Source: a virus (Duplodnaviria; Heunggongvirae; Uroviricota; Caudoviricetes). From it: a DNA stretch of 42,574 nucleotides. The first letter of the stretch is position 1; every line of letters begins with the position of its first letter. A model generated the notes under the pieces. The model ran no database searches. It saw only the letters and a list, made by a program, of their open reading frames with translations, and was not told the origin of the DNA. The stretch covers positions 1-42,574 of IMG/VR virus record IMGVR_UViG_2675903468_000002; one strand, 5' to 3'. Position numbers and translations under genes: made by a program. Shown here piece after piece: positions 2,606 through 40,156 of the stretch.

Positions 2606-6007
<3,402 letters not shown>

Positions 6008-16170: not shown

Positions 16171-17787
16171 TTACGGCATACTCATCAGCAGTTCTTCTTC
16201 CCCGTTCCCGGCAGTTCCGCCACCGGAAACGGCACTGGCGGCATGCTGTGCCATGAAGCGCTCAAAAAGTGTTACCTGTGACGGTTGCGATACTGATGGC
16301 GCAGCTGCCAGCAGCGTTTTCGCCTGCTCCACTGTCATTCCAGGTTGTTCAGCCAGCGCCTGTGCCAGTTTTTCGCGTCCTTTTGCTTCCGGCAACGCAA
16401 TAATTTGATCGCCGGTACTTGCCGTACCGGTTGCCGGTGCCGCTACCAGTAGCATTTTCGCCTGTTCCACCGTCATTCCCGGCTGTTCAGCCAGCGCCTG
16501 TGCGAGTTGTTCACGCCCTTTTGCTTCCGGAAGTGCCATAATCTGCTCGCCGGTACTTGCCGCACCGGAAACCGGTGCCGCTGCCAGTAACGTTTTCGCC
16601 TGCTCCACCGTCATTCCCGGCTGTTCAGCCAGCGTCCGTGCCAGTTGTTCACGCCCTTTTGCTTCCAGAAGTGCCATAATCTGATCGCCTGTGCTGTCAG
16701 TACCGGCAACCGGTGCTGCCGCCAGTAATGTTTTTGCCTGCTCAACTGACATTCCCTGCTGACCTGCCAGCATCTGCGCCAGTTTTTCGCGTCCTTTCGC
16801 CTCCTGACAATTCAGGATCCCCATCACGCGCTGATTTTCCTGGGACACCGCTTCAGCAACGGTGAGATTTTTTGTTGTCATCGTATTCTCCTGTGTAACA
16901 GAGTCGTTCAGAGCAGAAACCATTACATCAACGGCATCTGCAGCATTAATCAGTTGATCAGCCAGGCCTATATCAATGCCTGCCTGACCGTCATAAACGG
17001 CAGCCTCGGTATTCATCACCGCCTCTGAACTCAGCCCCGTATAAAGCGCCACCTTGTCGACAAACATCCGGCGGGCCTCATCAATACGGCGCTGAAAATC
17101 CGCACGCACACCTGTCGGCAACGCCTGAATACTGTTGCCGTCAACCTTGTGCTGCCCGGAGTAAATCAGCGTGATATCCACGCCTTCCTGTGCCAGTTGT
17201 TTCTCGTAACTGGTGTGCGCCATCATCACACCAATCGAACCAATTTTTGCCGTCTGCGTGACCAGCCGACGCGTACAGGCCGCCGCCAGCAACATGGCGG
17301 CTGAACAGGCCATGTCATTACACAGCGCCCACACGGGCTTCTGTTCCCGCAGACGGTAAATCATGTCAGCACAGTCAAACGCCCCGGCAGCCTGACCACC
17401 CGGACTGTCGATATCCAGTAAAATGCCGCGTACATCCGGGTCGTTCACCGCTGACTTAAGACGGGCAGTCAGACCGTCATAACCGGTCATACCGGAATAT
17501 GGCCGCAGGGTACCCATTTTATGTACCAACGTGCCGCTCACCGGCAGAATGGCAATACCATTTTTCACCTGGTAACTCTTTACCGGACGCGGACCACCAG
17601 TCATATAATCGGTAACCGCCAGCTGCATACCATCGGCATCAAGCTGAACGGCCTGCTGCGGAACGGCAAGGCTGCCCGCCCCCATCTCCTTACCCAGTGC
17701 GCAAAAGAAAACCCGCGCATAGGCGGGTTCCAGTAAAAGCGGCTCATTAAATGCCATCGCGGCAATATGTGATAAATTACAGCGCAT
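16171..17787 (-). CDS. C: Head maturation protease C with nested scaffold (Nu3-like) region carrying tandem repeats
   Basis: 538 aa; N-terminal HIAAMAFNEPLLLEPAYARVFFCAL and S49-protease region match lambda gpC; C-terminal part has four ~41-aa repeats. Confidence 0.9.
   Translation of the reverse strand: MRCNLSHIAAMAFNEPLLLEPAYARVFFCALGKEMGAGSLAVPQQAVQLDADGMQLAVTDYMTGGPRPVKSYQVKNGIAILPVSGTLVHKMGTLRPYSGMTGYDGLTARLKSAVNDPDVRGILLDIDSPGGQAAGAFDCADMIYRLREQKPVWALCNDMACSAAMLLAAACTRRLVTQTAKIGSIGVMMAHTSYEKQLAQEGVDITLIYSGQHKVDGNSIQALPTGVRADFQRRIDEARRMFVDKVALYTGLSSEAVMNTEAAVYDGQAGIDIGLADQLINAADAVDVMVSALNDSVTQENTMTTKNLTVAEAVSQENQRVMGILNCQEAKGREKLAQMLAGQQGMSVEQAKTLLAAAPVAGTDSTGDQIMALLEAKGREQLARTLAEQPGMTVEQAKTLLAAAPVSGAASTGEQIMALPEAKGREQLAQALAEQPGMTVEQAKMLLVAAPATGTASTGDQIIALPEAKGREKLAQALAEQPGMTVEQAKTLLAAAPSVSQPSQVTLFERFMAQHAASAVSGGGTAGNGEEELLMSMP
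16290..16790 (-). repeat. About four tandem ~123-bp direct repeats inside the C/Nu3 coding region
   Basis: DNA unit gcctgctccaccgtcattcccggctgttcagccagcgcctgtgc...ttttgcttccgg recurs at ~16321, ~16450, ~16573 and ~16696, encoding repeated EAKGREQLAQALAEQPGMTVEQAKTLLAAAP. Confidence 0.7.
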
Positions 17788-26748: not shown

Positions 26749-27795
26749 TTAAAAATCTTTCGTTATTTCTCTGACCGTCTGATTAAAACGTTCCTCTTCC
26801 AGTTCCACGCCAATCGCCCTGCATCCCAGCGACAGTGCCGCTTTTATTGTCGACCCCGACCCCATAAAAAAATCTGCGACCAAATCGCCTGGACGGCTGC
26901 TGGCAGTAATTATCTGACGCAACATATCCGCCGGTTTTTCACAGGGATGCTTACCCGGATAAAACTGCACGGGCTTGTGCGTCCAGACATCCGTATAAGG
27001 AACGACAGCCGATACGGAAAAATAACGCCGCAGTGATTTGTATTCCTCCAGCAGGCTGGCATATTGCCGGTTCAGTTCGCTGTATGTGCTGACCAGCTGG
27101 TGGTGTGGCTGCTCCAGTTCACCGCGCTGGTGTTTTTCTGCCACCACACGTGCAAACAGCGCCTGCAGTTTACTGTAATCGGCCTCATTCGGTAACTGCC
27201 ACTGACTGGTACCAAACCAGTGCGAAGCCATGTTTTTCTTTCCGGTGGCTTCTGCTATCTGTTTTGACGTTATCCCCAGTGATTCGCGCGCATCACGAAA
27301 GTAAGAAATCAGCGGGGCCATGACATGCTGCTTAAGCTCGCGCCCCTTTGCTGCATAACCGTCACTTTTGGGCTGGTATGGCCCCTGATAATGTTCGGCA
27401 AACAGAATGCGCTCTGTTGCCGGGAAATACGCCCGCAGGCTTTCCTTGTTGCACCCATTCCAGCGTCCGGACGGCTTCGCCCAGATAATGTGGTTCAGCA
27501 CATTAAAGCGTTCACGCATCATGATTTCGATATCAGATGCCAGGCGATGACCACAGAACAGGTAGAGACTTCCGGCAGGTTTCAGTACCCGCCAGAACTG
27601 CGCCAGACACTGAGCCAGCCATTTCAGGTAATCATCGTCCCCCTTCCACTGGTTATCCCAGCCCTCGGGCTTCACTTTAAAGTATGGCGGGTCTGTGACT
27701 ATCAGATCGACAGAGTTTTCCGGTAAGGTCCGGATAAATTCCAGGCAATCAGCGTTGATTAACTCACAACTGGATATTTTTACAGTATTAGCCAT
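26749..27795 (-). CDS. DNA methyltransferase (N6-adenine or N4-cytosine, beta-class), apparently orphan
   Basis: 348 aa; motif IV DPPY (LIVTDPPYFKV) near the N-terminus and AdoMet motif I FxGxG (DFFMGSGST) near the C-terminus; no adjacent restriction endonuclease candidate. Confidence 0.85.
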   Translation of the reverse strand: MANTVKISSCELINADCLEFIRTLPENSVDLIVTDPPYFKVKPEGWDNQWKGDDDYLKWLAQCLAQFWRVLKPAGSLYLFCGHRLASDIEIMMRERFNVLNHIIWAKPSGRWNGCNKESLRAYFPATERILFAEHYQGPYQPKSDGYAAKGRELKQHVMAPLISYFRDARESLGITSKQIAEATGKKNMASHWFGTSQWQLPNEADYSKLQALFARVVAEKHQRGELEQPHHQLVSTYSELNRQYASLLEEYKSLRRYFSVSAVVPYTDVWTHKPVQFYPGKHPCEKPADMLRQIITASSRPGDLVADFFMGSGSTIKAALSLGCRAIGVELEEERFNQTVREITKDF

Positions 27796-28143: not shown

Positions 28144-28650
28144 GTCTTTTTCCCTTTTCCGGTTAACGTGACATACCAATAACTCTTGTCGAAAAAGCCA
28201 GCAAGCTGAAAGACCGGTATTCGTAACCACCAGCACGTTTAACGTCCTGTGCCGTTTTTCGGGTACAAAAAACAGCCCGACGGCGGTTTTAAGGAAGGAG
28301 TCGAAGCAACCACTCTTAACATCATAATTGAATTTTTACGTACGTAAACCACAAATACGCCACTCAAATGTTAATGCTCTATAACAAAACCAAACATGCG
28401 AATAACACATATTACACCAAATACATCATTGTTATTTTTCAATGAAAAATGAGTAAATAATGTATTTCATTAATTAAATTCCGCATTACACAAAAATATC
28501 GACAAATTACACCAACGCGCATAAATGAGATCTTGATCATATTATCAATCACTAAATTAAACTTGCCTCTTGAAATAACCACATTGATTAGATGAATATT
28601 TATCGCGCAGTGACATCATTTTTTAAAATAGTTCAAAAAAAGGGTTCGTG

Positions 28651-29760
28651 ATGAAAAAATTAACGGTGGCAATTTCTGCTGTGGCTGCATCAGTATCAGT
28701 ACTGATGGCGATGTCTGCTCAGGCAGCAGAGATTTATAATAAAGACAGCAACAAGTTGGATCTGTACGGAAAAGTTAATGCTAAGCACTACTTCTCCTCT
28801 AACGATGCAAATGATGGCGACACAACTTATGCTCGTCTGGGTTTCAAAGGCGAAACTCAGATCAACGATCAACTGACTGGTTTCGGTCAGTGGGAATATG
28901 AATTCAAAGGAAACCGTACTGAAGAACAGGGAGCAGCCAAAGATAAAACCCGTCTTGCATTTGCAGGGCTTAAATTCGGTGACTACGGCTCCGTCGATTA
29001 CGGTCGTAACTACGGTGTAGCATACGATATCGGTGCATGGACTGACGTTCTGCCAGAATTCGGTGGAGATACTTGGACCCAAACAGATGTATTCATGACT
29101 GGTCGCACCACTGGTGTTGCAACTTATCGTAACAACGACTTCTTTGGTCTGGTTGATGGTCTGAATTTTGCTGCACAGTACCAGGGTAAGAATAATCATG
29201 ATCGTAGTAGCTTAGATAACTACACCAAAGGCAATGGCGATGGTTTTGGTTTCTCTGCGACCTATGAATACGAAGGTTTCGGCATTGGTGCAACGTATGC
29301 GAAATCTGATCGTACCGACACTCAAGTCAAATTGGGTAAACTTCTCCCAGGAGTATTTGCTTCCGGCGAAAATGCAGAAGTCTGGGCTGCAGGTCTGAAA
29401 TACGACGCAAACAACGTTTATCTGGCAACAACCTATTCAGAAACCCAGAATATGACTAAATTCGCAGATTACTTTGTGGCTAATAAAGCACAAAACTTCG
29501 AAGCTGTTGCACAATATCAGTTCGATTTCGGTCTGCGTCCGTCTGTTGCTTATCTGCAATCAAAAGGTAAAGATCTTGGCATTTTTGGTGACCAAGATTT
29601 AGTCAAATATGTTGATGTTGGCGCAACTTATTATTTCAACAAAAATATGTCTACATTCGTTGATTACAAAATCAACCTGCTTGACAAAAATGACTTTACT
29701 AAAGCTCTTGGTGTAAACACTGACGATATCGTTGCTGTAGGTATGGTATACCAGTTCTAA
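28651..29760 (+). CDS. nmpC: Outer membrane porin, NmpC/Lc/OmpC family (phage-encoded)
   Basis: [25 protein letters not shown] signal peptide then [24 protein letters not shown]...ending VGMVYQF; trimeric-porin hallmarks; closely matches recalled DLP12 NmpC; opposite strand to Q and lysis genes as in DLP12. Confidence 0.95.
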
Positions 29761-29940: not shown

Positions 29941-30324
29941 TTAATTAAGCTTAGTAACATCAATATCCATCTCTAAGCAAATGTCTAATGCCATTAACAT
30001 ACCTTCGATTATTCCCTCTGCTTTCTGTAACCTTTTCCCGATATACCCATCAGAGCAATTATGCTTCCGCGCCAGCATCATAAACGTCATCCCACCAACA
30101 TAATAATCCACCAGCAAATCATGTAAGCCATTGTTGCTCTTTTTCAGACAGGCCATACATCCACAAATGATCATCGCGTCATCGTCACAGCATTGCGGAC
30201 GAGATCTTACTTTTGAAGGAATTAATCCCTTAAAACCGGCGGCAACGGACGACCAGGTCACATCTTCATGATTATTAGCCGCCCACGCTCCCCAACGCTC
30301 AAGAACCATCTGAATATCACGCAT
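29941..30324 (-). CDS. Q: Late-gene antiterminator Q (phage 82 / DLP12 QuuD type)
   Basis: 127 aa, [24 protein letters not shown]...[18 protein letters not shown]; matches recalled QuuD; located just upstream of the porin, as quuD-nmpC in DLP12. Confidence 0.85.
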
Positions 30325-30581
30325 CAGCGCAGTACCTCCTGCACCAGTTTTTCAAACTTTCCAACTTTGGTTTCCAGCTCTGCCACACAATCCACCAGCT
30401 CATCCACTGCTTTTTGTGCGCGGTGTTTCGCCTGCATCAGTTCCCTGAGCGCTGGCACCATATCCTTACGAATGGCATCTTTTGTTACGCCTGTCTTTTC
30501 CAGTTGTTCCGCCTGTCGTAACATTTCCTGTGCCTGTTTACGTAATTGTTCAGGCGTAAAAGTCATGGTCTGGTTGTTCAA
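30324..30581 (-). CDS. Small helical protein of unknown function
   Basis: 85 aa, charged coiled-coil-like sequence; start overlaps the DnaB stop. Confidence 0.5.
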
Positions 30582-31969
30582 AAGAAACGCTCCATCTTAC
30601 TGCTGTCGGTTCGCTTATTGCTGTATCTGCGCGGCTGGGGCTGCTGCATTGGGGTGGAAAGAATCTGTGCGCTTTCCTGGTCTACGGGCAGAAAATGTCC
30701 GTTATAAAAACGCCGGTAAATCGTCCCCAGAGAACCGTTACGTTGTTTCGTGATATTGATTTCTGCAATGCCTCTGGCCTGCGTATCCGGGTTGTACACT
30801 TCATCCCTGTAAAGCATCAGAATGATGTCTGCATCCGCCTCTATTTCTCCGGAATTTTTCAGGTCTGAGTTCATAGGGCGTTTATTGGGCCTGGACTCCA
30901 CACCACGGGAAAGCTGGCTCAGCGCAATCAACGGAAAACCACCGGATTTTGCCAGGCCTTTAAGCCCCTTTGAGATTTCACCCACGGCAAGGTCATGACG
31001 CCCCGTGGTTCGGGTTTTTATCAGCCCGAGATAATCAACCACCACCAGCGCCGTTTCCGGATGTTTAATCAGGTGATGTTTCGTTGTTGCGCATATCTCA
31101 TCAATGGTCAGGTTCGCCTGGTCCACCATCCAGATATTGCGCCCGGTCATCCGCCCCACTCCTTGTGAGAAACGTGCCCAATCTTCGTCTTCAAAGTGAG
31201 TGACAGATTTCAGGCGTGATACCGGCATTCCTCCAGCCGCAGATACCATGCGTTCACCAATCTGGATGTTCGCCATTTCCATTGTGAACAGAAGAACACC
31301 ATGCCCCTGCTCAGTCACCTTGTCGATGATATCCAGCGCCAGTTCGGTTTTGCCCATTGACGGACGAGCCGCAATAAATACCAGGTCGCCGGGAACCATG
31401 CCACCTGTTTTTGCGTCCAGTTCATCAATACCGGTCATCAACGTCCTGGATTTCTCCAGTCCCTGATTCCGGCATTCAACACGCTCAACCACTTCCGGAA
31501 GCACATCATCAATATGTACCGGCTGAATAGCGCCCTTTTCCGTCGACAATGAGGCCATCATGTTCTGCGCATCCTTCAGAGCATCTTCAGCCGCTTCACA
31601 GGTATGCGCATCACGTAATTTCTGCAGCGCCTCATTCAGCGTTTTTTCTGCATCGCGCAATGCGGCATTGCGCCGCAACGCTGCAACATAGTGCTCCAGT
31701 GAAGACTTCACCCAGGTTTTGCGCCCGGTATCAGTAATCACCGGGGCAAGTTCCGGCATCTCATTACACAACAGCACAGGGTCAATCACGCCTGAAACAC
31801 GGGCCTGTCTGCAGATGCCTGTGTAGATATCCCGATACGCTCGTACAGAAAAAACGTCCGCAGGTAGTGTGGCCAGAATATCCATCACTTCAGGATCTGC
31901 CCCACGCAGAAAGAACGCGCCAATGACAGCGCCTTCCAGGTCATCGTTACGCCAGACTGGTGTTGTCAT
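30578..31969 (-). CDS. Replicative DNA helicase, DnaB family
   Basis: 463 aa; N-terminal DnaB domain, Walker A ARPSMGKTELALD, and RecA-like C-terminal domain. Confidence 0.85.
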   Translation of the reverse strand: MTTPVWRNDDLEGAVIGAFFLRGADPEVMDILATLPADVFSVRAYRDIYTGICRQARVSGVIDPVLLCNEMPELAPVITDTGRKTWVKSSLEHYVAALRRNAALRDAEKTLNEALQKLRDAHTCEAAEDALKDAQNMMASLSTEKGAIQPVHIDDVLPEVVERVECRNQGLEKSRTLMTGIDELDAKTGGMVPGDLVFIAARPSMGKTELALDIIDKVTEQGHGVLLFTMEMANIQIGERMVSAAGGMPVSRLKSVTHFEDEDWARFSQGVGRMTGRNIWMVDQANLTIDEICATTKHHLIKHPETALVVVDYLGLIKTRTTGRHDLAVGEISKGLKGLAKSGGFPLIALSQLSRGVESRPNKRPMNSDLKNSGEIEADADIILMLYRDEVYNPDTQARGIAEINITKQRNGSLGTIYRRFYNGHFLPVDQESAQILSTPMQQPQPRRYSNKRTDSSKMERFF

Positions 31970-32853
31970 GCAGCCACACCTCTGATACGAGAACGGTAGC
32001 TGGGCCAGTTAAACGACAACCAGTTGCGCCCCCCGTCTGTGATCCTGTCGGCAATGCGGGGGCTGATGAACGCCCACAACTCTTCCGGTGAAAGGTTGCT
32101 GATCAGGATGGTGGGCAGGATGCTTTCGTACCGGGCATTGATAATTTCCTGCAAAATAGCCATTTCAGCCGCGCTGCCAAACTGAACGCCGACTTCGTCG
32201 ATGATCAGCAAATCCAATGACGCATAATGCTCAATAACTTCATCCGCTGTTTTTTCGCTGTCATTCCGCCAGCAGTTTTTCACAGCACGGGTAAGGCGCA
32301 TCACATCAGTAATCTCCACACTGGCCAGATGGTTACGGATGATGTGTTTTGCCATAGCCACAGCCAGATGATTTTTTCCGGTACCACAACTGCCTGTCAG
32401 AACAAGACTGGTACCGTTAGCCAGAACATCCTCCCAGCTCTCTGCATAGCGGCGGCAGGCAGCAAGATTTCTGGCTGCATCAGAGTTAATCTCCTGATAG
32501 TTTTCAAACTCACAGTCGCGAAACCTACAGGCAACACCAGCATTCTCAATCAGCACATCAGCTTTCATTGCAACCAGAGTCCGATGTGTCACATCCATTT
32601 CATCCACCAGACACTCCGGACAGCGGGAAATTTTTGAGACAGCGCCCCCCTGCCGATCATCCCACACCAGTATATGCGTACGATATTTACCGTGTTTTTC
32701 GCAGCATCCAACCCCTTCAGATTCCCGGCAGGCGCGGTAAGGCCATGGCTTTTCGCCATTCTGAGCAAATGCAATCTCTGCCCGTAACTCATCCATTCGC
32801 GCCTGTAGTCTTGTTTGTTTCTCACGTTGGTTAATCGTCATCATCGCTGTCAC
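31966..32853 (-). CDS. DnaC/IstB-like AAA+ helicase loader with N-terminal Cys-rich region
   Basis: Walker A GSCGTGKNHLAVA, Walker B LLIIDEVG; Cys cluster CCEKHG...CPEC in N-terminus. Confidence 0.8.
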   Translation of the reverse strand: MTAMMTINQREKQTRLQARMDELRAEIAFAQNGEKPWPYRACRESEGVGCCEKHGKYRTHILVWDDRQGGAVSKISRCPECLVDEMDVTHRTLVAMKADVLIENAGVACRFRDCEFENYQEINSDAARNLAACRRYAESWEDVLANGTSLVLTGSCGTGKNHLAVAMAKHIIRNHLASVEITDVMRLTRAVKNCWRNDSEKTADEVIEHYASLDLLIIDEVGVQFGSAAEMAILQEIINARYESILPTILISNLSPEELWAFISPRIADRITDGGRNWLSFNWPSYRSRIRGVAA

Positions 32854-32854
32854 C

Positions 32855-33847
32855 TCAGAATGTCAGTTTGTCACTGGATTTACCGAATTTGTCAGACATG
32901 GCTCCCAGGCCAGCCAGGACATCGACCTGTCGCTGTCGCCCACCTCCGGGAGCGGCTGGCTGTTGCCAGTAATCTTCGAAGTGACGATCGGGTCCAAAGA
33001 ACGTCGCAGCCTGCTTCACGAACTGTGTGCCGGTATTTCCTGTAGCACGTACCCAGGCGGCATACCGCTTCACACCATCAAGCATGGTCTCCGGTTTTAT
33101 TCCCTCCCTGATACGGGCTTTCCAGGCTTTGAAGGCTGCTGACTTGGAATTACCACCAGCACGTTTGGGATATTCCTGCCAGGCCTGTTCAAATTCCGGT
33201 GAATATTCCTGTCGGGCAGAACGCGCTGGTGCAGACGCGTCAGCGGATGCTCCAATAGTGTTTTTAGTCTCCGTTGTAATCTCTGTAGTAATCTCTGTAT
33301 TTGTATCAACATTCGGCGTATCCCCTGTTCCGTTATGACGTTGGGGGGTGTTCCGTTTTAACGTAATAGCTGTATCGCTGATTGAGTTATTGCTGTTACT
33401 TTCTGGCGAAACAGAAGAAGGTGTGGTGATGGCAGCAATTGCCTGTGGGTTGATCCCGACAAACAAAATATTGCTGCATTTCACCCCGTCTAGCATTTCC
33501 ACCGTACGTAAATCCAGAGTAATAAACCCAGCATCACGAAGACGCTTCAGCGCATCTGCGGTTTCCCTTTTCCCAAAGCCAAACTGTTCAGCAAACGCCT
33601 GATAGCTTCTTTGCAGCTTGTCACCCTGAAAACGCTTGCGATATCCCAGTAAAGCCCCGGTATGCTCATCCCTGACTTCTGTCGGGCGGTACCAGTAAAC
33701 AATCTCTGAAAGCAGCGCAATGGCAGTCGCATCCGGACGACCACTTGGTAGCCGAATATGTTTCCACCAGTTCGCTGGTGTGACATTGCCAGAAATATTG
33801 AGTTGGCCAATAGCCATAACTTCAGGTGTAGGAGCGTAACGGCTCAC
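32855..33847 (-). CDS. Replication initiator (lambda O-like organiser) with internal ori-like repeats
   Basis: 330 aa; GTG start with GGAGG RBS; low-complexity linker TNTEITTEITTETK encoded by DNA direct repeats; position upstream of the helicase loader. Confidence 0.6.
   Translation of the reverse strand: MSRYAPTPEVMAIGQLNISGNVTPANWWKHIRLPSGRPDATAIALLSEIVYWYRPTEVRDEHTGALLGYRKRFQGDKLQRSYQAFAEQFGFGKRETADALKRLRDAGFITLDLRTVEMLDGVKCSNILFVGINPQAIAAITTPSSVSPESNSNNSISDTAITLKRNTPQRHNGTGDTPNVDTNTEITTEITTETKNTIGASADASAPARSARQEYSPEFEQAWQEYPKRAGGNSKSAAFKAWKARIREGIKPETMLDGVKRYAAWVRATGNTGTQFVKQAATFFGPDRHFEDYWQQPAAPGGGRQRQVDVLAGLGAMSDKFGKSSDKLTF
33266..33360. repeat. Iteron-like direct repeats (candidate origin of replication) inside the initiator gene
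   Basis: Tandem GTAATCTCTGTA x2 (33276-33299) with flanking partial copies, plus TGTTCCGTT repeated at ~33326 and ~33349. Confidence 0.4.
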
Positions 33848-34068
33848 ACGGCACCTCCCAGACGCTTAAACATTTTTCCAGACAGAAATACCGCCAGCGG
33901 GTAACTGATGGTGTAGCTACGCCCCTGTAGTTCGCACACGACTTTCTGGCTTTCAGCGTTGACTAGGCAAACCCGCAGAACGTGACCGTTGCTGGTGGCG
34001 AACCACTGCCCCACACGGGGGCAACGGTTGTATCGGTGATACAGGGAATTAACGATGCGGCGAATCAT
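33844..34068 (-). CDS. Small hypothetical protein
   Basis: 74 aa with strong AGGAGG RBS; function unknown. Confidence 0.5.
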   Translation of the reverse strand: MIRRIVNSLYHRYNRCPRVGQWFATSNGHVLRVCLVNAESQKVVCELQGRSYTISYPLAVFLSGKMFKRLGGAV

Positions 34069-34616
34069 GGGTGCGCCTCCTTGTCAGAACCATTAAGTCT
34101 GGAATCAACAAGTGCAGCGCCAAAAACAGCATCTCCTACACGGTCATACAGCTTGCTCGCCAGCGGAGATTCAACGGCCTTAAGCATGGGGTAAAGCTGG
34201 CTTTTCCAGATTTGATGGATTTCACGCAAATGCAGGTATACGCCTCTGGCGTTTCGTGCAACAGCTGACATATCAACCGCGTCAGCACCAGATAAATTCT
34301 TCTCCATCTGGTTAAAGGCGTTGATGTATGCCTCTTTGAACCGGGCTGCACGTTTGCCAGTAAAGCCCATTGCCAGGAACGCGAAGCCATCGCGGGTGAT
34401 TTGATAGCAAGGTAGTTTGCGGCCTGTGCAATCGGTGTAATCACTCACCGAAAAATTGCGGGCAGTGAATGATGCGGAGCATTCAAGCGTGCGGATCTTT
34501 TTCAGTACATCGTCATGACGTTTGGAGAAGAAGTTGGCAACAGCCAGGGATGAAGTAACAGCCTGACCATCAACGATGGCAATTTCAGGTTGAGTGAGGG
34601 TTGGGATCGTAGCCAT
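34065..34616 (-). CDS. Rha-family phage regulatory protein
   Basis: Start MATIPTLTQPEIAIVDGQAVTSSLAVANFFSKRHDDVLKKIR with AAGAGG RBS; Rha-type domain. The ORF-track extension to 34937 starts with TTG and contains a terminator, so it is not used. Confidence 0.7.
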   Translation of the reverse strand: MATIPTLTQPEIAIVDGQAVTSSLAVANFFSKRHDDVLKKIRTLECSASFTARNFSVSDYTDCTGRKLPCYQITRDGFAFLAMGFTGKRAARFKEAYINAFNQMEKNLSGADAVDMSAVARNARGVYLHLREIHQIWKSQLYPMLKAVESPLASKLYDRVGDAVFGAALVDSRLNGSDKEAHP

Positions 34617-34632
34617 GATGGCAGCCTCTTTG

Positions 34633-34658
34633 GTGATTTTAAATAACTCACCACCAAG
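34633..34658 (-). promoter_or_regulatory. Inverted repeat overlapping a candidate promoter just upstream of the Rha gene
   Basis: GGTGA-ttttaaataac-TCACC palindrome within an AT-rich TTATTTAAAAT stretch ~20 nt upstream of the Rha start. Confidence 0.3.
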
Positions 34659-34781
34659 GCTTTCCACGACCTTATTGGTGGTGAGACGTACAGGGGTGGA
34701 AATACCGGTCACCAAAGAACCCGGCCCAACCGAAGTTGGCCCTGCACGCCCCACCATAATTTGGGCGTAATGCTGCTCATG

Positions 34782-34808
34782 ACACAAAAAAACCGCAAGA
34801 GCGCGGTT
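34782..34808 (-). terminator. Intrinsic terminator downstream of the Lar-like gene
   Basis: Minus strand AACCGC-GCUCUU-GCGGUU followed by UUUUUUUGUG. Confidence 0.6.
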
Positions 34809-34933
34809 GTGCGCTTTGGTGAATTCCGGGTTTCCACGCCCGGCACCCGCTTTATAAGGTGCTGGAATAGTGTAACGTCCCGAAATTGCAGAATCAATAT
34901 GTTGGTTGCGGATCATTTTGTACCTACTCGCCG

Positions 34934-35143
34934 TCAATCCGCGTTTTCGCGCTGATTCCAGTCATGAACAGCACGTTCTTTCGAATCAGGGATCTGGTTT
35001 GCGTTACAGCAAGTACATGCGACGTAATAACCATCATCGCCATCCAGAAAATATTTCACCTCAATGAGTTGTACTTCCGGATTTCCGCAGAACGGGCAAG
35101 GTTTCAGATCGACATCACCAGTTACACACGTCTTGGTTTGCAT
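34934..35143 (-). CDS. Small zinc-ribbon protein, Lar-like restriction-alleviation family candidate
   Basis: 69 aa with CPFCG...CTCC cysteine motif; TAATG overlap with the upstream antirepressor gene suggests translational coupling. Confidence 0.5.
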   Translation of the reverse strand: MQTKTCVTGDVDLKPCPFCGNPEVQLIEVKYFLDGDDGYYVACTCCNANQIPDSKERAVHDWNQRENAD

Positions 35144-36003
35144 TATTTGTTCTCCTGTAAAAGATTCGCGAGCTCAGTGTTATGGGTAAACAGCCCATCC
35201 CATGTTTTCTTCATCGGTAGTTCACCGTTCAGATAATGGCGATATAACCAGGCGGCACCTTTTTTCTTCAGGAGTGGTTTGAAAATCTCGCGCATTTCCC
35301 CGTTTTCCTGCTCAACCTGCCCAGAACGCTCAGTCAGGTATTGGTCACGTGCATACGCTTTTACACGCCAGCGCGGATACATAGCCTCCGGACGGTCGTC
35401 ATACAGCCAGTTACGCTCTTCAAGGAACGCATTAATCTGACGAGTGTTTACACCGTTGAGTTGTTTGCAGAACTGCACAGGAGTGATGCCATCGGCGAGA
35501 TGGCTTTCGAGTTTGCTGATGTAGCGAGCCTGACGCTCTGCATACCCGAGAGCAAGGCGTTCGGATTTTTTGGCTTCAATCCACGCTTCAGCAGCAGCGA
35601 TCGGATCGTCAAAGTCTGGAATAGTGTTTGAAGAAGGCGTTGCTTTACGAAAATACGCCTGCTCCATTTTTTCGAAGAACGACCAGGCCTCGTCTGTATC
35701 GACGATTTTTGACATGCGGGCAGCGCCGCGTTCTGTCCAGAGAGTGAGTGAACGCGCATTTCTTCCAACAGAGTGACCAATAGTCACTCTGTCCTTAAAT
35801 GCTTTCAGGGCATCACCAGTTAAAAGAAAATAATGTTTCCCATCTTCAAAGCGCTCAAGATTGCGCGACAGATTTTTACGGATATTAGCTTCATCCGTGC
35901 CATATCCCGCCGCCAGCGTTTCAGTGGTAACTACGCGTACCCCCTGCCACTCAATCACTGGCAGGTTTTCAGGGTTGACTAATTTTTGTTTATTGATCAT
36001 CAT
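35143..36003 (-). CDS. Antirepressor-like protein (ORF6N/Bro-N-type N-terminal domain, KilA-C-like C-terminus)
   Basis: 286 aa; N-terminal LPVIEWQGVRVVTTETLAAGYGTDEANIRKNLSRNLERFEDGKHYF resembles phage antirepressor N-domains. Confidence 0.6.
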   Translation of the reverse strand: MMINKQKLVNPENLPVIEWQGVRVVTTETLAAGYGTDEANIRKNLSRNLERFEDGKHYFLLTGDALKAFKDRVTIGHSVGRNARSLTLWTERGAARMSKIVDTDEAWSFFEKMEQAYFRKATPSSNTIPDFDDPIAAAEAWIEAKKSERLALGYAERQARYISKLESHLADGITPVQFCKQLNGVNTRQINAFLEERNWLYDDRPEAMYPRWRVKAYARDQYLTERSGQVEQENGEMREIFKPLLKKKGAAWLYRHYLNGELPMKKTWDGLFTHNTELANLLQENK

Positions 36004-36078: not shown

Positions 36079-36378
36079 TCATCGCGTGGACATTTCTGAT
36101 GAATCACTCTGCCCATCTTCCGTGCGCGCTAGGCTTGGATTTGAAATTTTGCGTAACGAATCAGGAATTCCATCTTCAGGGTGAGGATAAAGATCTGGCC
36201 TTAAGCCATGTGGCGTGACCTTCCATGCAACTACTTCACATACGCGTAAAACAAAACGAGCAGGAATTGTGTTTTTTGAAAACCACTGATTCACCGCTTG
36301 CGGAGTTACACCAAGGTTTCGTGCAATGGCATTTTGCGCAATTAATGCGCGAAGTACGTCGTAATCATTTCCTTTCAT
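36079..36378 (-). CDS. Cro-like HTH regulator (first gene of the rightward early operon)
   Basis: 99 aa; HTH LRALIAQNAIARNLGVTPQAVNQWF; divergent from the cI-like gene across a 133-bp operator region. Confidence 0.65.
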   Translation of the reverse strand: MKGNDYDVLRALIAQNAIARNLGVTPQAVNQWFSKNTIPARFVLRVCEVVAWKVTPHGLRPDLYPHPEDGIPDSLRKISNPSLARTEDGQSDSSEMSTR

Positions 36379-36511
36379 AGCAAAACACCAATATTAACTT
36401 GATAACACAAGAATATATCAAGATTAAATTAACATGCAAGTTGCAAAAGGATCGAATACACTAAAATCAAGTAAAGATTTATCCTTGTAAAGAAACCCAC
36501 AGGACCTGGTC
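36379..36511. promoter_or_regulatory. Immunity operator/promoter region (OR-like) with divergent promoters
   Basis: Minus-strand promoter TTGCAT-16-TATATT; plus-strand candidate TTGCAA-15-TAAAAT; inverted repeats built on CTTGAT/ATCAAG half-sites (for example CTTGATAACACAAGAATATATCAAG). Confidence 0.5.
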
Positions 36512-39143: not shown

Positions 39144-39332
39144 ATGAGACTGTATTTCACAATAGTAATTTTACTGGCAATTATCGCATGCATTTACGGA
39201 TTACTCGTTCCGTTCCTTATATCCATGAAGGATACGATAGCAGTTATTTCTGGCTTTGCACTGGCGTTTCTGACCCCGCCCTGCATTTATGCCATTTACA
39301 AGGGTCTTTCTTTCGCTAAGGATAAAAGATGA
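39144..39332 (+). CDS. Small two-TM membrane protein coupled to the SPFH gene
   Basis: 62 aa, MRLYFTIVILLAIIACIYGLLVPFLISM...; stop overlaps the SPFH start (ATGA). Confidence 0.5.
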   Translation: MRLYFTIVILLAIIACIYGLLVPFLISMKDTIAVISGFALAFLTPPCIYAIYKGLSFAKDKR

Positions 39333-40156
39333 AAAAAATTATTTTTGCTTTAGCCATTGTTCTGCCGACTATTGGCCTTGTCGGTTGCGATCGCGTTGAA
39401 CCAGGTAATGTTGGCATCAAGGTAAATAAACTGGGCGACGACAAAGGCGTCGGTGAGGTGGTCGGTGTTGGTCGCTACTGGACTGGCTGGAATACTGAAG
39501 TTTATATCTTCCCCACCTTCAAACAAATGAAGACCTACGATGAACCGTTCAGTTTCCAGATGAGTGACGGTACAACCATCGGCTATCACATTGGCGTGGC
39601 CTACAAAGTTGATCCATCCAAAGTTACCACGGTGTTTCAGACCTACCGCAAAGGCGTGGATGACATTACCGACACTGACCTGCGCCAGAAGATCGCCGAC
39701 GCACTCAACCGACTGGCCAGCAAAATGACCACTGACAAATTTATCGACGGCGGCAAGTCTGAGCTGCTGGATGAAGCTCTTAAAGACATTCAGGCAGAGA
39801 TGACACCTATCGGTATTCAGGTAATGAGCCTCTCATATGTGGGTAAGCCGGAGTACCCGCCAACCGTTATCGACAGCATTAATGCCAAAGTCACGGCAAA
39901 CCAGAAAACCCTGCAGCGCGAGCAGGAAGTCAAGCAACGTGAAGCGGAGGCCAACATGCTACGTGCGGAAGCTGCCGGACAGGCTGATGCCATTCGAACA
40001 AAAGCCCAGGCAGAAGCCGATGCCATTCGTTTACGCGGCGAAGCTCTACGCCAGAACCCAGGCGTCATGGAGCTGGAAGCCATCAACAAGTGGAACGGTA
40101 CACTGCCGCAATACATGACCAGTGGTGCCAATACACCATTTATCCAGATTAAATAA
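39329..40156 (+). CDS. SPFH/band-7 (prohibitin/HflKC-like) domain lipoprotein
   Basis: 275 aa; lipobox LVGC after signal peptide; SPFH-like core followed by Ala/Glu/Arg-rich coiled coil (REQEVKQREAEANMLRAEAAGQADAIRTKAQAEADAIRLRGEA). Confidence 0.7.
   Translation: MKKIIFALAIVLPTIGLVGCDRVEPGNVGIKVNKLGDDKGVGEVVGVGRYWTGWNTEVYIFPTFKQMKTYDEPFSFQMSDGTTIGYHIGVAYKVDPSKVTTVFQTYRKGVDDITDTDLRQKIADALNRLASKMTTDKFIDGGKSELLDEALKDIQAEMTPIGIQVMSLSYVGKPEYPPTVIDSINAKVTANQKTLQREQEVKQREAEANMLRAEAAGQADAIRTKAQAEADAIRLRGEALRQNPGVMELEAINKWNGTLPQYMTSGANTPFIQIK

Follow-up and report, generated by a model that had tools for sequence, protein, structure and literature searches.

How does a temperate phage begin its replication when the genome carries, side by side, genes for an initiator, a helicase loader and a replicative helicase, and which helicase does the loader serve? 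This question is raised by the DNA of a tailed virus (Caudoviricetes; IMG/VR record IMGVR_UViG_2675903468_000002), whose whole analyzed stretch of 42,574 nucleotides is referred to here as the window. Positions 30578-33847 of the window consist of exactly three co-directional open reading frames (ORFs) on the minus strand, with nothing left over, and comparison with protein families confirmed that they encode a predicted origin-binding initiator, a DnaC-type loader and a DnaB-type helicase. Our results favor the view that these genes form a self-contained three-component replication-initiation cassette of the type found in phiP27 and the Eru7 Shiga toxin (Stx) phages, carried by a lambda-like temperate siphovirus. 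A probability of about 0.6 is assigned to this reading together with the mechanism proposed below.

The three genes and their known relatives

The helicase matched Pfam DnaB_C over residues 177-422 (E-value 2.5e-72, 243.8 bits, cutoff 27) and the Pfam DnaB N-terminal domain (PF00772) over residues 9-86 (24.7 bits, cutoff 23), so that the protein is full-length. It was aligned to residues 34-461 of E. coli DnaB (1.4e-64). The Walker A (AARPSMGKT) and Walker B (VVDYLGL) motifs matched those of E. coli DnaB, the arginine-finger region SQLSRGVESRPNKRPMNSDLKNSGEIEADAD was also aligned to it, and the SQLSR...RP...DL.NSGEIEADAD motifs were intact. The scores against TIGR00665 (311 vs 385 bits) and TIGR03600 phage_DnaB (278 vs 499 bits) were below the equivalog cutoffs. 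Judged by these profiles, the helicase is a member of the DnaB family, yet no equivalog of cellular DnaB or of TIGR03600 phage_DnaB.

The loader matched Pfam IstB_IS21 (PF01695; 1.2e-15, 58.1 bits, cutoff 24.1) and PHROG 50, which is named 'DnaC-like helicase loader' (5.8e-84). Its score against the NCBIfam DnaC model NF005931 (9e-41, 140 bits) was under the equivalog cutoff of 357. The AAA+ domain occupies residues 105-292, with a Walker A motif (GSCGTGKNHL) and a Walker B motif (LLIIDEVG) that were aligned to those of E. coli DnaC, and the fold of this ATPase domain was found to be nearest to that of DnaC. The initiator matched PHROG 270, 'replication initiation protein' (8.7e-79), and its C-terminal third matched several PHROGs named replication protein, DnaD-like or primosomal. 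The check with hidden Markov models thus upheld all three assignments of the first-pass annotation, with scores far above chance. The contrast that it had drawn with lambda, which possesses O and P and lacks a helicase of its own, was also correct.

On the minus strand the genes are closely spaced in the order of initiator, loader and helicase. The stop codon of the initiator is located 10 nt ahead of the loader ATG, and the loader TGA and helicase ATG share bases as ATGA. The loader is probably of the shorter length given in Table 1, because a GAGG Shine-Dalgarno sequence precedes the ATG at 32844; the PGAP annotation of the closest E. coli genome agrees with this start.

Table 1. Replication genes, flanking small ORFs and candidate origin in the window (aa, amino acid residues)
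Feature	Position	Strand	Remarks
Replication initiator	32855-33847	-	330 aa; PHROG 270
DnaC/IstB-type AAA+ helicase loader	31966-32844	-	292 aa; ORF extends 31966-32853
DnaB-family replicative helicase	30578-31969	-	463 aa; N- and C-terminal domains
Upstream small ORF	33844-34068	-	74 aa; PHROG 1153; stop overlaps initiator start by 4 bp
Downstream small ORF	30324-30581	-	85 aa; start overlaps helicase stop by 4 bp
Candidate origin in initiator gene	33268-33364	-	two 16-mers and a 12-mer array

The same genes are found in well-known phages. In a megablast search, window 30578-33257, which comprises the helicase and loader genes together with the C-terminal third of the initiator, was 94.1% identical to PhiR49_2 and 92.4% identical to phiP27, and the identities to about 20 Stx1a-, Stx2a- or Stx2d-converting phages were 83-89%. 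For phiP27 and the Stx phages, the similarity at the nucleotide level ends at window 33257. In the Stx phages the copies are annotated as 'replication protein O / DnaC / DNA helicase', and in phiP27 the corresponding genes, in the same order, are L17 (unknown, with a helix-turn-helix), L18 (DnaC-like) and L19 (helicase). Among the matches was LC567818.1 (Stx2_14040), the Eru7 reference phage. The Eru7 type is particularly widespread (Fagerlund et al., 2022); in this scheme phages are typed by two genes next to cI, and genes further downstream are not considered (Fagerlund et al., 2022). Thus phiP27, PhiR49_2 and the Eru7-type Stx phages have the three genes, their order and high identity in common with the window, whereas the initiator's N-terminal domain and the linker repeats of phiP27 and the Stx phages differ from those of the window.

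Moreover, the cassette was matched in 480 of the 5426 complete E. coli genomes in RefSeq (~9%), of which 283 carry at least 80% of it, and the best match was 98% identical. By these matches the cassette is not new: it is an ordinary copy of one that has been annotated since phiP27 (2002) and that is frequent among Stx phages and the prophages of E. coli. Lambdoid replication modules have been divided into those with a loader of the lambda P type, those with a loader of the DnaC type and those with a DnaB-type protein, as alternatives (PMC2669165). In the window, in contrast, a DnaC-type loader is found together with a DnaB-type protein.

Not all copies of the cassette are intact. At ~3761-4640 of the loci L083 (E. 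coli ECMA0423) and L084 (Shigella flexneri SFBU1023), an IS3-family transposase gene replaces the initiator while the loader and helicase are intact, and these copies are decayed. Such disruptions, together with the shorter length (252 aa) annotated for the phiP27 loader, would fit a defective prophage in which the cassette is a non-functional remnant or in which either the loader or the helicase has fallen out of use. This explanation is, however, highly improbable for the window, where the three ORFs are intact, the catalytic motifs are conserved, and a full lambda-like set of structural, lysis, regulatory and integrase genes is present. In addition, the cassette is part of the complete genome records of phiP27, PhiR49_2 and the Stx phages, it recurs in the E. 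coli genomes counted above, and its presence in inducible phages (phiP27 and the Stx1a/Stx2a phages) supports a working initiation cassette.

Initiator architecture and candidate origin

The initiator comprises an N-terminal winged-helix domain (about residues 1-135), a low-complexity, repeat-bearing linker (about residues 136-197) and a conserved C-terminal domain (residues 198-330; window 32855-33256). The profile of the initiator family gave weak matches to winged-helix proteins (GntR, AsnC and FadR) at residues 75-113, and apart from a weak winged helix-turn-helix no significant sequence or profile match was obtained in the PDB. Among 77 related loci, four unrelated N-terminal domains were joined to one and the same C-terminal domain at one junction (...IGASADASAPARSARQEYSPEFEQAW; ...IGASADAS...). 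Besides the window type and the phiP27 type there are two others, and some of the four have matches to Pfam HTH_36 or GntR-like domains.

The initiator had been called O-like in the first-pass annotation. This description stands for the architecture, with its swappable N-terminal domain, linker repeats and separate C-terminal domain, but not for the sequence. Neither Pfam (E <= 0.01), Phage_rep_O included, nor NCBIfam yielded a match, and BLASTP comparisons with P22 gp18 and phi80 gp15 were not significant. PHROG families described as O-like were matched weakly (1.5e-6 and 3.8e-5).

Another combination was observed in the Logan contigs L136-L138, where the window-type N-terminal domain is joined to a different, O-type C-terminal domain (P0186; gene at 5001-5996 of L136). 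Downstream in these contigs is a gene for a 623-aa primase-helicase with Toprim and AAA_25/DnaB_C domains (6103-7974 of L136), and no DnaC-like gene is found there. These contigs fit a C-terminal domain that recruits the downstream machinery. The match between C-terminal domain and machinery is not one-to-one, as a similar O-type C-terminal domain in Escherichia phage N7 pairs with a loader bearing the Cys/His motif. Strict co-variation of the C-terminal domain with the helicase system is therefore only partly supported by the sequences compared.

The DNA that encodes the linker contains the candidate origin. In the window, two 16-mers (ACGTyAwAACGGAACA) are located at 33326-33341 and 33349-33364 with a spacing of 23 bp, and next to them are 2.7 copies of a 12-mer (ACAGAGATTACw; 33268-33299) in a purine-skewed stretch with 43-44% GC. 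Each type of N-terminal domain has direct repeats of its own at the same position just upstream of the junction. For instance, the phiP27-type linker contains four to five GACCCTTCAGAwTCTG units and two AAACATGATCCGCAAG units, and the two remaining types have different repeats again. The orthologues of Serratia and Yersinia, which have the window-type N-terminal domain, contain related ACGT-containing repeats and the same 12-mers, and the number of repeat copies differs between two Yersinia species. In lambda, P22 and phage L, the origin with its iterons is located in the middle of the initiator gene (PMC8022706), and the records of P22 and phi80 also have the origin or initiator binding sites annotated within the initiator gene. 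From this comparative pattern of type-specific linker repeats, an origin at about 33268-33364, within the initiator gene, is probable.

Some properties of the repeats weigh against this location. The two 16-mers are the only clear ones in the window: a search for further copies of this iteron in the window found none, and a pattern search returned three matches where about one was expected. Moreover, several chance arrays in other parts of the window scored at least as high as the 12-mer array. The origin might then be located elsewhere, for instance in the A/T-rich intergenic region between cro and cI (36380-36510), where the GC content falls to 0.28-0.30 (36350-36500), and the linker repeats would be a by-product of a low-complexity protein. 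Such a location would change one step of the proposed mechanism and not the whole of it. We consider it quite unlikely, since different repeats accompany each type of N-terminal domain at one place, their copy number varies between close Yersinia relatives and the recombination junction lies directly downstream of them. In addition, lambda, P22, L and phi80 all have their origins at the corresponding position, and the A/T-rich stretch at 36.4 kb is expected as the divergent promoter/operator between the repressor and cro-like genes.

The loader and the helicase it serves

The loader's N-terminal domain (residues 1-104; window 32533-32844) stands where DnaC has its DnaB-binding segment. The alignment to E. 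coli DnaC covers DnaC residues 48-242 only, and the MK..L..RLQ..MP start of the host-type DnaCs of other genomes is absent from the loader. The cluster of Cys residues that had been noticed in this domain is real, but what is conserved in it is limited to C48, H51, C75 and C78 (292-aa numbering), and C38 and C47 vary among the relatives. The four conserved residues were invariant in 36 close relatives as well as in a set of seven diverse loaders (Escherichia, Vibrio, Ralstonia, Pseudomonas, Serratia and Pantoea). With good confidence the domain was predicted to fold into two long helices with a three-stranded sheet between them, and in the model the four residues cluster in a hairpin and a helix start. 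This pattern suggests a Cys3His metal site.

The domain had no match to any solved fold. A search of 1.84 billion representative proteins with its profile returned 29 matches, nearly all of which were from its own clade or were fragments. In Bacillus subtilis, the helicase-binding N-terminal domain of DnaI holds a Cys3His zinc site (PMC2673437). DnaI and the window loader are alike in being of the DnaC/DnaI type with Cys3His residues in the N-terminal domain, which in the loader would bind the metal; the two domains share neither fold nor sequence family. Different from E. coli DnaC with its N-terminal DnaB-binding domain, the phage loader instead has a putative Cys3His domain of 90-100 aa.

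From the domains described so far we infer the following course of initiation. The N-terminal winged-helix domain of the initiator would bind the type-specific repeats in its own linker-coding DNA, and the adjoining purine-skewed 12-mer array would melt. The C-terminal domain of the initiator would then recruit a complex of phage loader and phage helicase, in which the loader would grip the helicase by its Cys3His N-terminal domain and the DnaC-like AAA+ domain would open the hexamer and set it on single-stranded DNA. Finally, the helicase would recruit the host DnaG primase and Pol III via its DnaB-type N-terminal domain. Genes for a phage primase or polymerase were not found in the annotated parts of the window, and P22 gp12 works with E. 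coli DnaG according to the account given of Wickner (1984) in PMC8022706. This course is supported by the domain assignments from profiles and structure, by the close spacing and start/stop overlap of the genes, by the four N-terminal domains found on one C-terminal domain, each with its own repeats, and by the constant linkage of loader and helicase.

This linkage was observed throughout the relatives. A helicase gene is directly downstream of the loader in all 80 IMG/VR loci of the window clade and in all 18 loci of other genera (Citrobacter, Enterobacter, Serratia, Raoultella, Kosakonia, Rahnella and Yersinia), whose loaders are 45-57% identical to that of the window. The same holds for two more distant loci of Azotobacter and Pseudomonas, and a helicase is present in 34 of 34 loci of Pseudomonas JBD68-like phages. 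Because of the constant linkage and the start/stop overlap, the phage helicase is the favored client of the loader. In a scan of one genome per species, a helicase adjoined 20 of 20 loaders with the Cys/His domain and none of 33 loaders of the host-DnaC type, but this association is misleading owing to a sampling effect of the search patterns.

Escherichia phage N7 has a module of another kind (1560-3253 of L141), in which an O-type initiator is followed by a 287-aa loader with CxxH...CxxC and then by nin genes, without a helicase. The loaders of the N7 type and the window loader have the C/H/G/C/C motif and the DnaC-like AAA+ domain in common, whereas the N7-type modules lack a phage helicase and their initiators have a different, O-type C-terminal domain. 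The Cys/His domain was also considered as the mark of a loader specific for a phage helicase, and this was ruled out by N7, Vibrio phage Rostov 7 and Ralstonia phage Heva, which all have the motif and no helicase. The sequences indicate instead that the motif-bearing N-terminal domain is general to a family of phage DnaC-like proteins that appear to serve host DnaB where the module has two genes and a phage DnaB paralogue where it has three.

Several of these observations weigh against a loader dedicated to the phage helicase. In the N7-like IMG/VR loci (L145-L224), the motif was present in 80 of 80 and a phage helicase in none of the 71 with enough downstream sequence; Rostov 7 and Heva likewise have no helicase near their motif-bearing loaders. 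Since the motif also occurs in modules without a helicase, the domain is not diagnostic of a phage-encoded client, and the window loader might also act on host DnaB, as its N7-type relatives without a phage helicase presumably do. Helicases of the P22 gp12 type, moreover, function without a phage loader. Finally, the pairwise distances of loader and helicase sub-domains were correlated mainly through phylogeny (rho 0.81-0.92 in each pair), with no specific signal of co-evolution.

These points bear on an alternative in which the loader acts mainly on host DnaB, either loading it at the phage origin or sequestering it. Sequestered DnaB would shut down host replication, and the phage helicase would be recruited directly by the initiator, as in P22. 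The N7-like, Rostov 7 and Heva loaders would fit this alternative, as they have C48/H51/G52/C75/C78 and the AAA+ domain in common with the window loader and no phage helicase nearby; the P22 helicase is 40% identical to that of the window and is not accompanied by a loader, and a loader homologue of phage 77 binds the host helicase (PMC4887207). However, in every relative of at least 45% identity the helicase gene comes next after that of the loader, the stop codon of the one overlapping the start codon of the other, and the DnaB-binding N-terminal domain of E. coli DnaC itself is absent from the loader. In addition, the N7-type loader is just ~43-44% identical to that of the window, and its N-terminal domain was not retrieved by the N-terminal domain profile of the window clade. 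A loader working mainly on host DnaB is thus considered unlikely, and the phage helicase is retained as the favored client. Independence of replication from host DnaB and DnaC and an effect on host replication, both raised by the first-pass annotation, are plausible suppositions.

A broader possibility, put forward tentatively and held to be doubtful, is that the CxxH...CxxC domain represents a third, phage-borne class of helicase-binding domains, distinct from both the E. coli DnaC N-terminal domain and that of DnaI. Its client would switch between host DnaB (N7-type modules) and a phage DnaB paralogue (the window clade and the Pseudomonas JBD68-like phages), and the window clade would possess a closed pair. 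Replication of phiP27-type and Eru7-type Stx2a phages would then not depend on host DnaB and DnaC, and it might even work against that of the host. If the closed pair is real, these prophages, including the widespread Eru7-type Stx2a prophages, would need neither host DnaB nor host DnaC to replicate once induced. This would matter for the amplification of toxin genes and for the question of why the host requirements of 'non-lambdoid' Stx phages are not those of lambda, and the cassette would offer a tractable Gram-negative counterpart to Bacillus phage SPP1, with a DnaC-type AAA+ loader retargeted by exchange of its N-terminal domain. As it stands, the window contains one more copy of an already-annotated cassette, and the modest points are the Cys3His N-terminal domain of the loader and its relatives with or without a helicase.

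Other replication modules and the surrounding prophage

The description of the arrangement as P22/phi80-style did not fit either phage. In P22, gene 18, which encodes an O-like initiator and has the origin annotated inside, is directly followed by gene 12, and no DnaC-like gene is found. The gene 12 product, a DnaB-type helicase, is similar to the window helicase over its full length. Thus, P22 and the window have the lambdoid early-right operon, the origin (probable in the window) in the initiator gene and the DnaB-type helicase in common, but the P22 initiator belongs to the lambda O family and the loader is absent. In phi80, four gp15 binding sites are located inside the gene of gp15, and gp14, annotated as lambda-P-like, had no similarity to the window loader; phi80 is without a helicase. 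Similar to the window, lambda O/P and phi80 gp15/gp14 include a two-domain initiator with iterons in the linker-coding DNA, followed by a protein that recruits a helicase (PMC8022706). Lambda P and phi80 gp14, however, are non-AAA+ proteins by which host DnaB is recruited in the absence of a helicase of the phage.

The closest counterpart in function is found in a Gram-positive host. SPP1 needs G38P, G39P and G40P, which are its own initiator, loader and DnaB-type helicase (PMC3561973). By analogy of function, SPP1 is the best functional analogue of the three-component module, and in the window all three functions are encoded contiguously. Different from the window loader, SPP1 G39P is not known to be a DnaC-type AAA+ ATPase.

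The two small ORFs that flank the cassette are also conserved within E. coli-type phages. The 74-aa ORF was kept upstream under all four types of initiator N-terminal domain (76/80 IMG/VR loci), and the 85-aa ORF was kept downstream in 79/80 E. coli-type IMG/VR loci, likewise with any of these domain types. Both were absent from the relatives in other genera.

According to its annotation, the window is a complete lambda-like temperate siphovirus. Its structural genes encode a gpA-type terminase, a lambda-family portal, an S49 head protease, an E-type capsid protein, a tape measure, a J tip protein and Lom, and lysis genes, a DNA methylase, a Q antiterminator (29941-30324) and, at the right end, a Rac-type integrase are also present. 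An S24-type repressor gene and a cro-like YdaS gene face each other. The replication genes belong to the early-right operon, in which Q follows them and an ORF6N/ANT antirepressor, a Lar homologue and an Ash-Rha fusion precede them. At 34065-36003 on the minus strand, between the cro-like and replication genes, the Ash+Rha fusion, the Lar restriction-alleviation homologue and the ORF6N+KilAC antirepressor were found; a Rha-family protein next to cI defines Eru6, Eru7 and Eru9 in the Eru scheme (Fagerlund et al., 2022).

Other features of the window were noted in passing. The head protease/scaffold gene (ORF 16171-17787, minus strand; Peptidase_S49, lambda gpC-like) contains 3.6 copies of a 138-nt unit at 16304-16804 (84% matches, Tandem Repeats Finder score 638), which are translated into 46-aa tandem repeats in the C-terminal half of the protein. 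An N6/N4 DNA methylase gene is located between the Q gene and the lysis genes (26749-27795, minus strand), and a gene for an SPFH/Band 7 protein is in the early-left region (39329-40156, plus strand). Just downstream of the Q gene, on the opposite strand, is a full-length OmpC/NmpC-like porin gene (28648-29760, plus strand; Porin_1, 8e-152), which is probably a moron; this stretch has ~40% GC, compared with ~52% around it.

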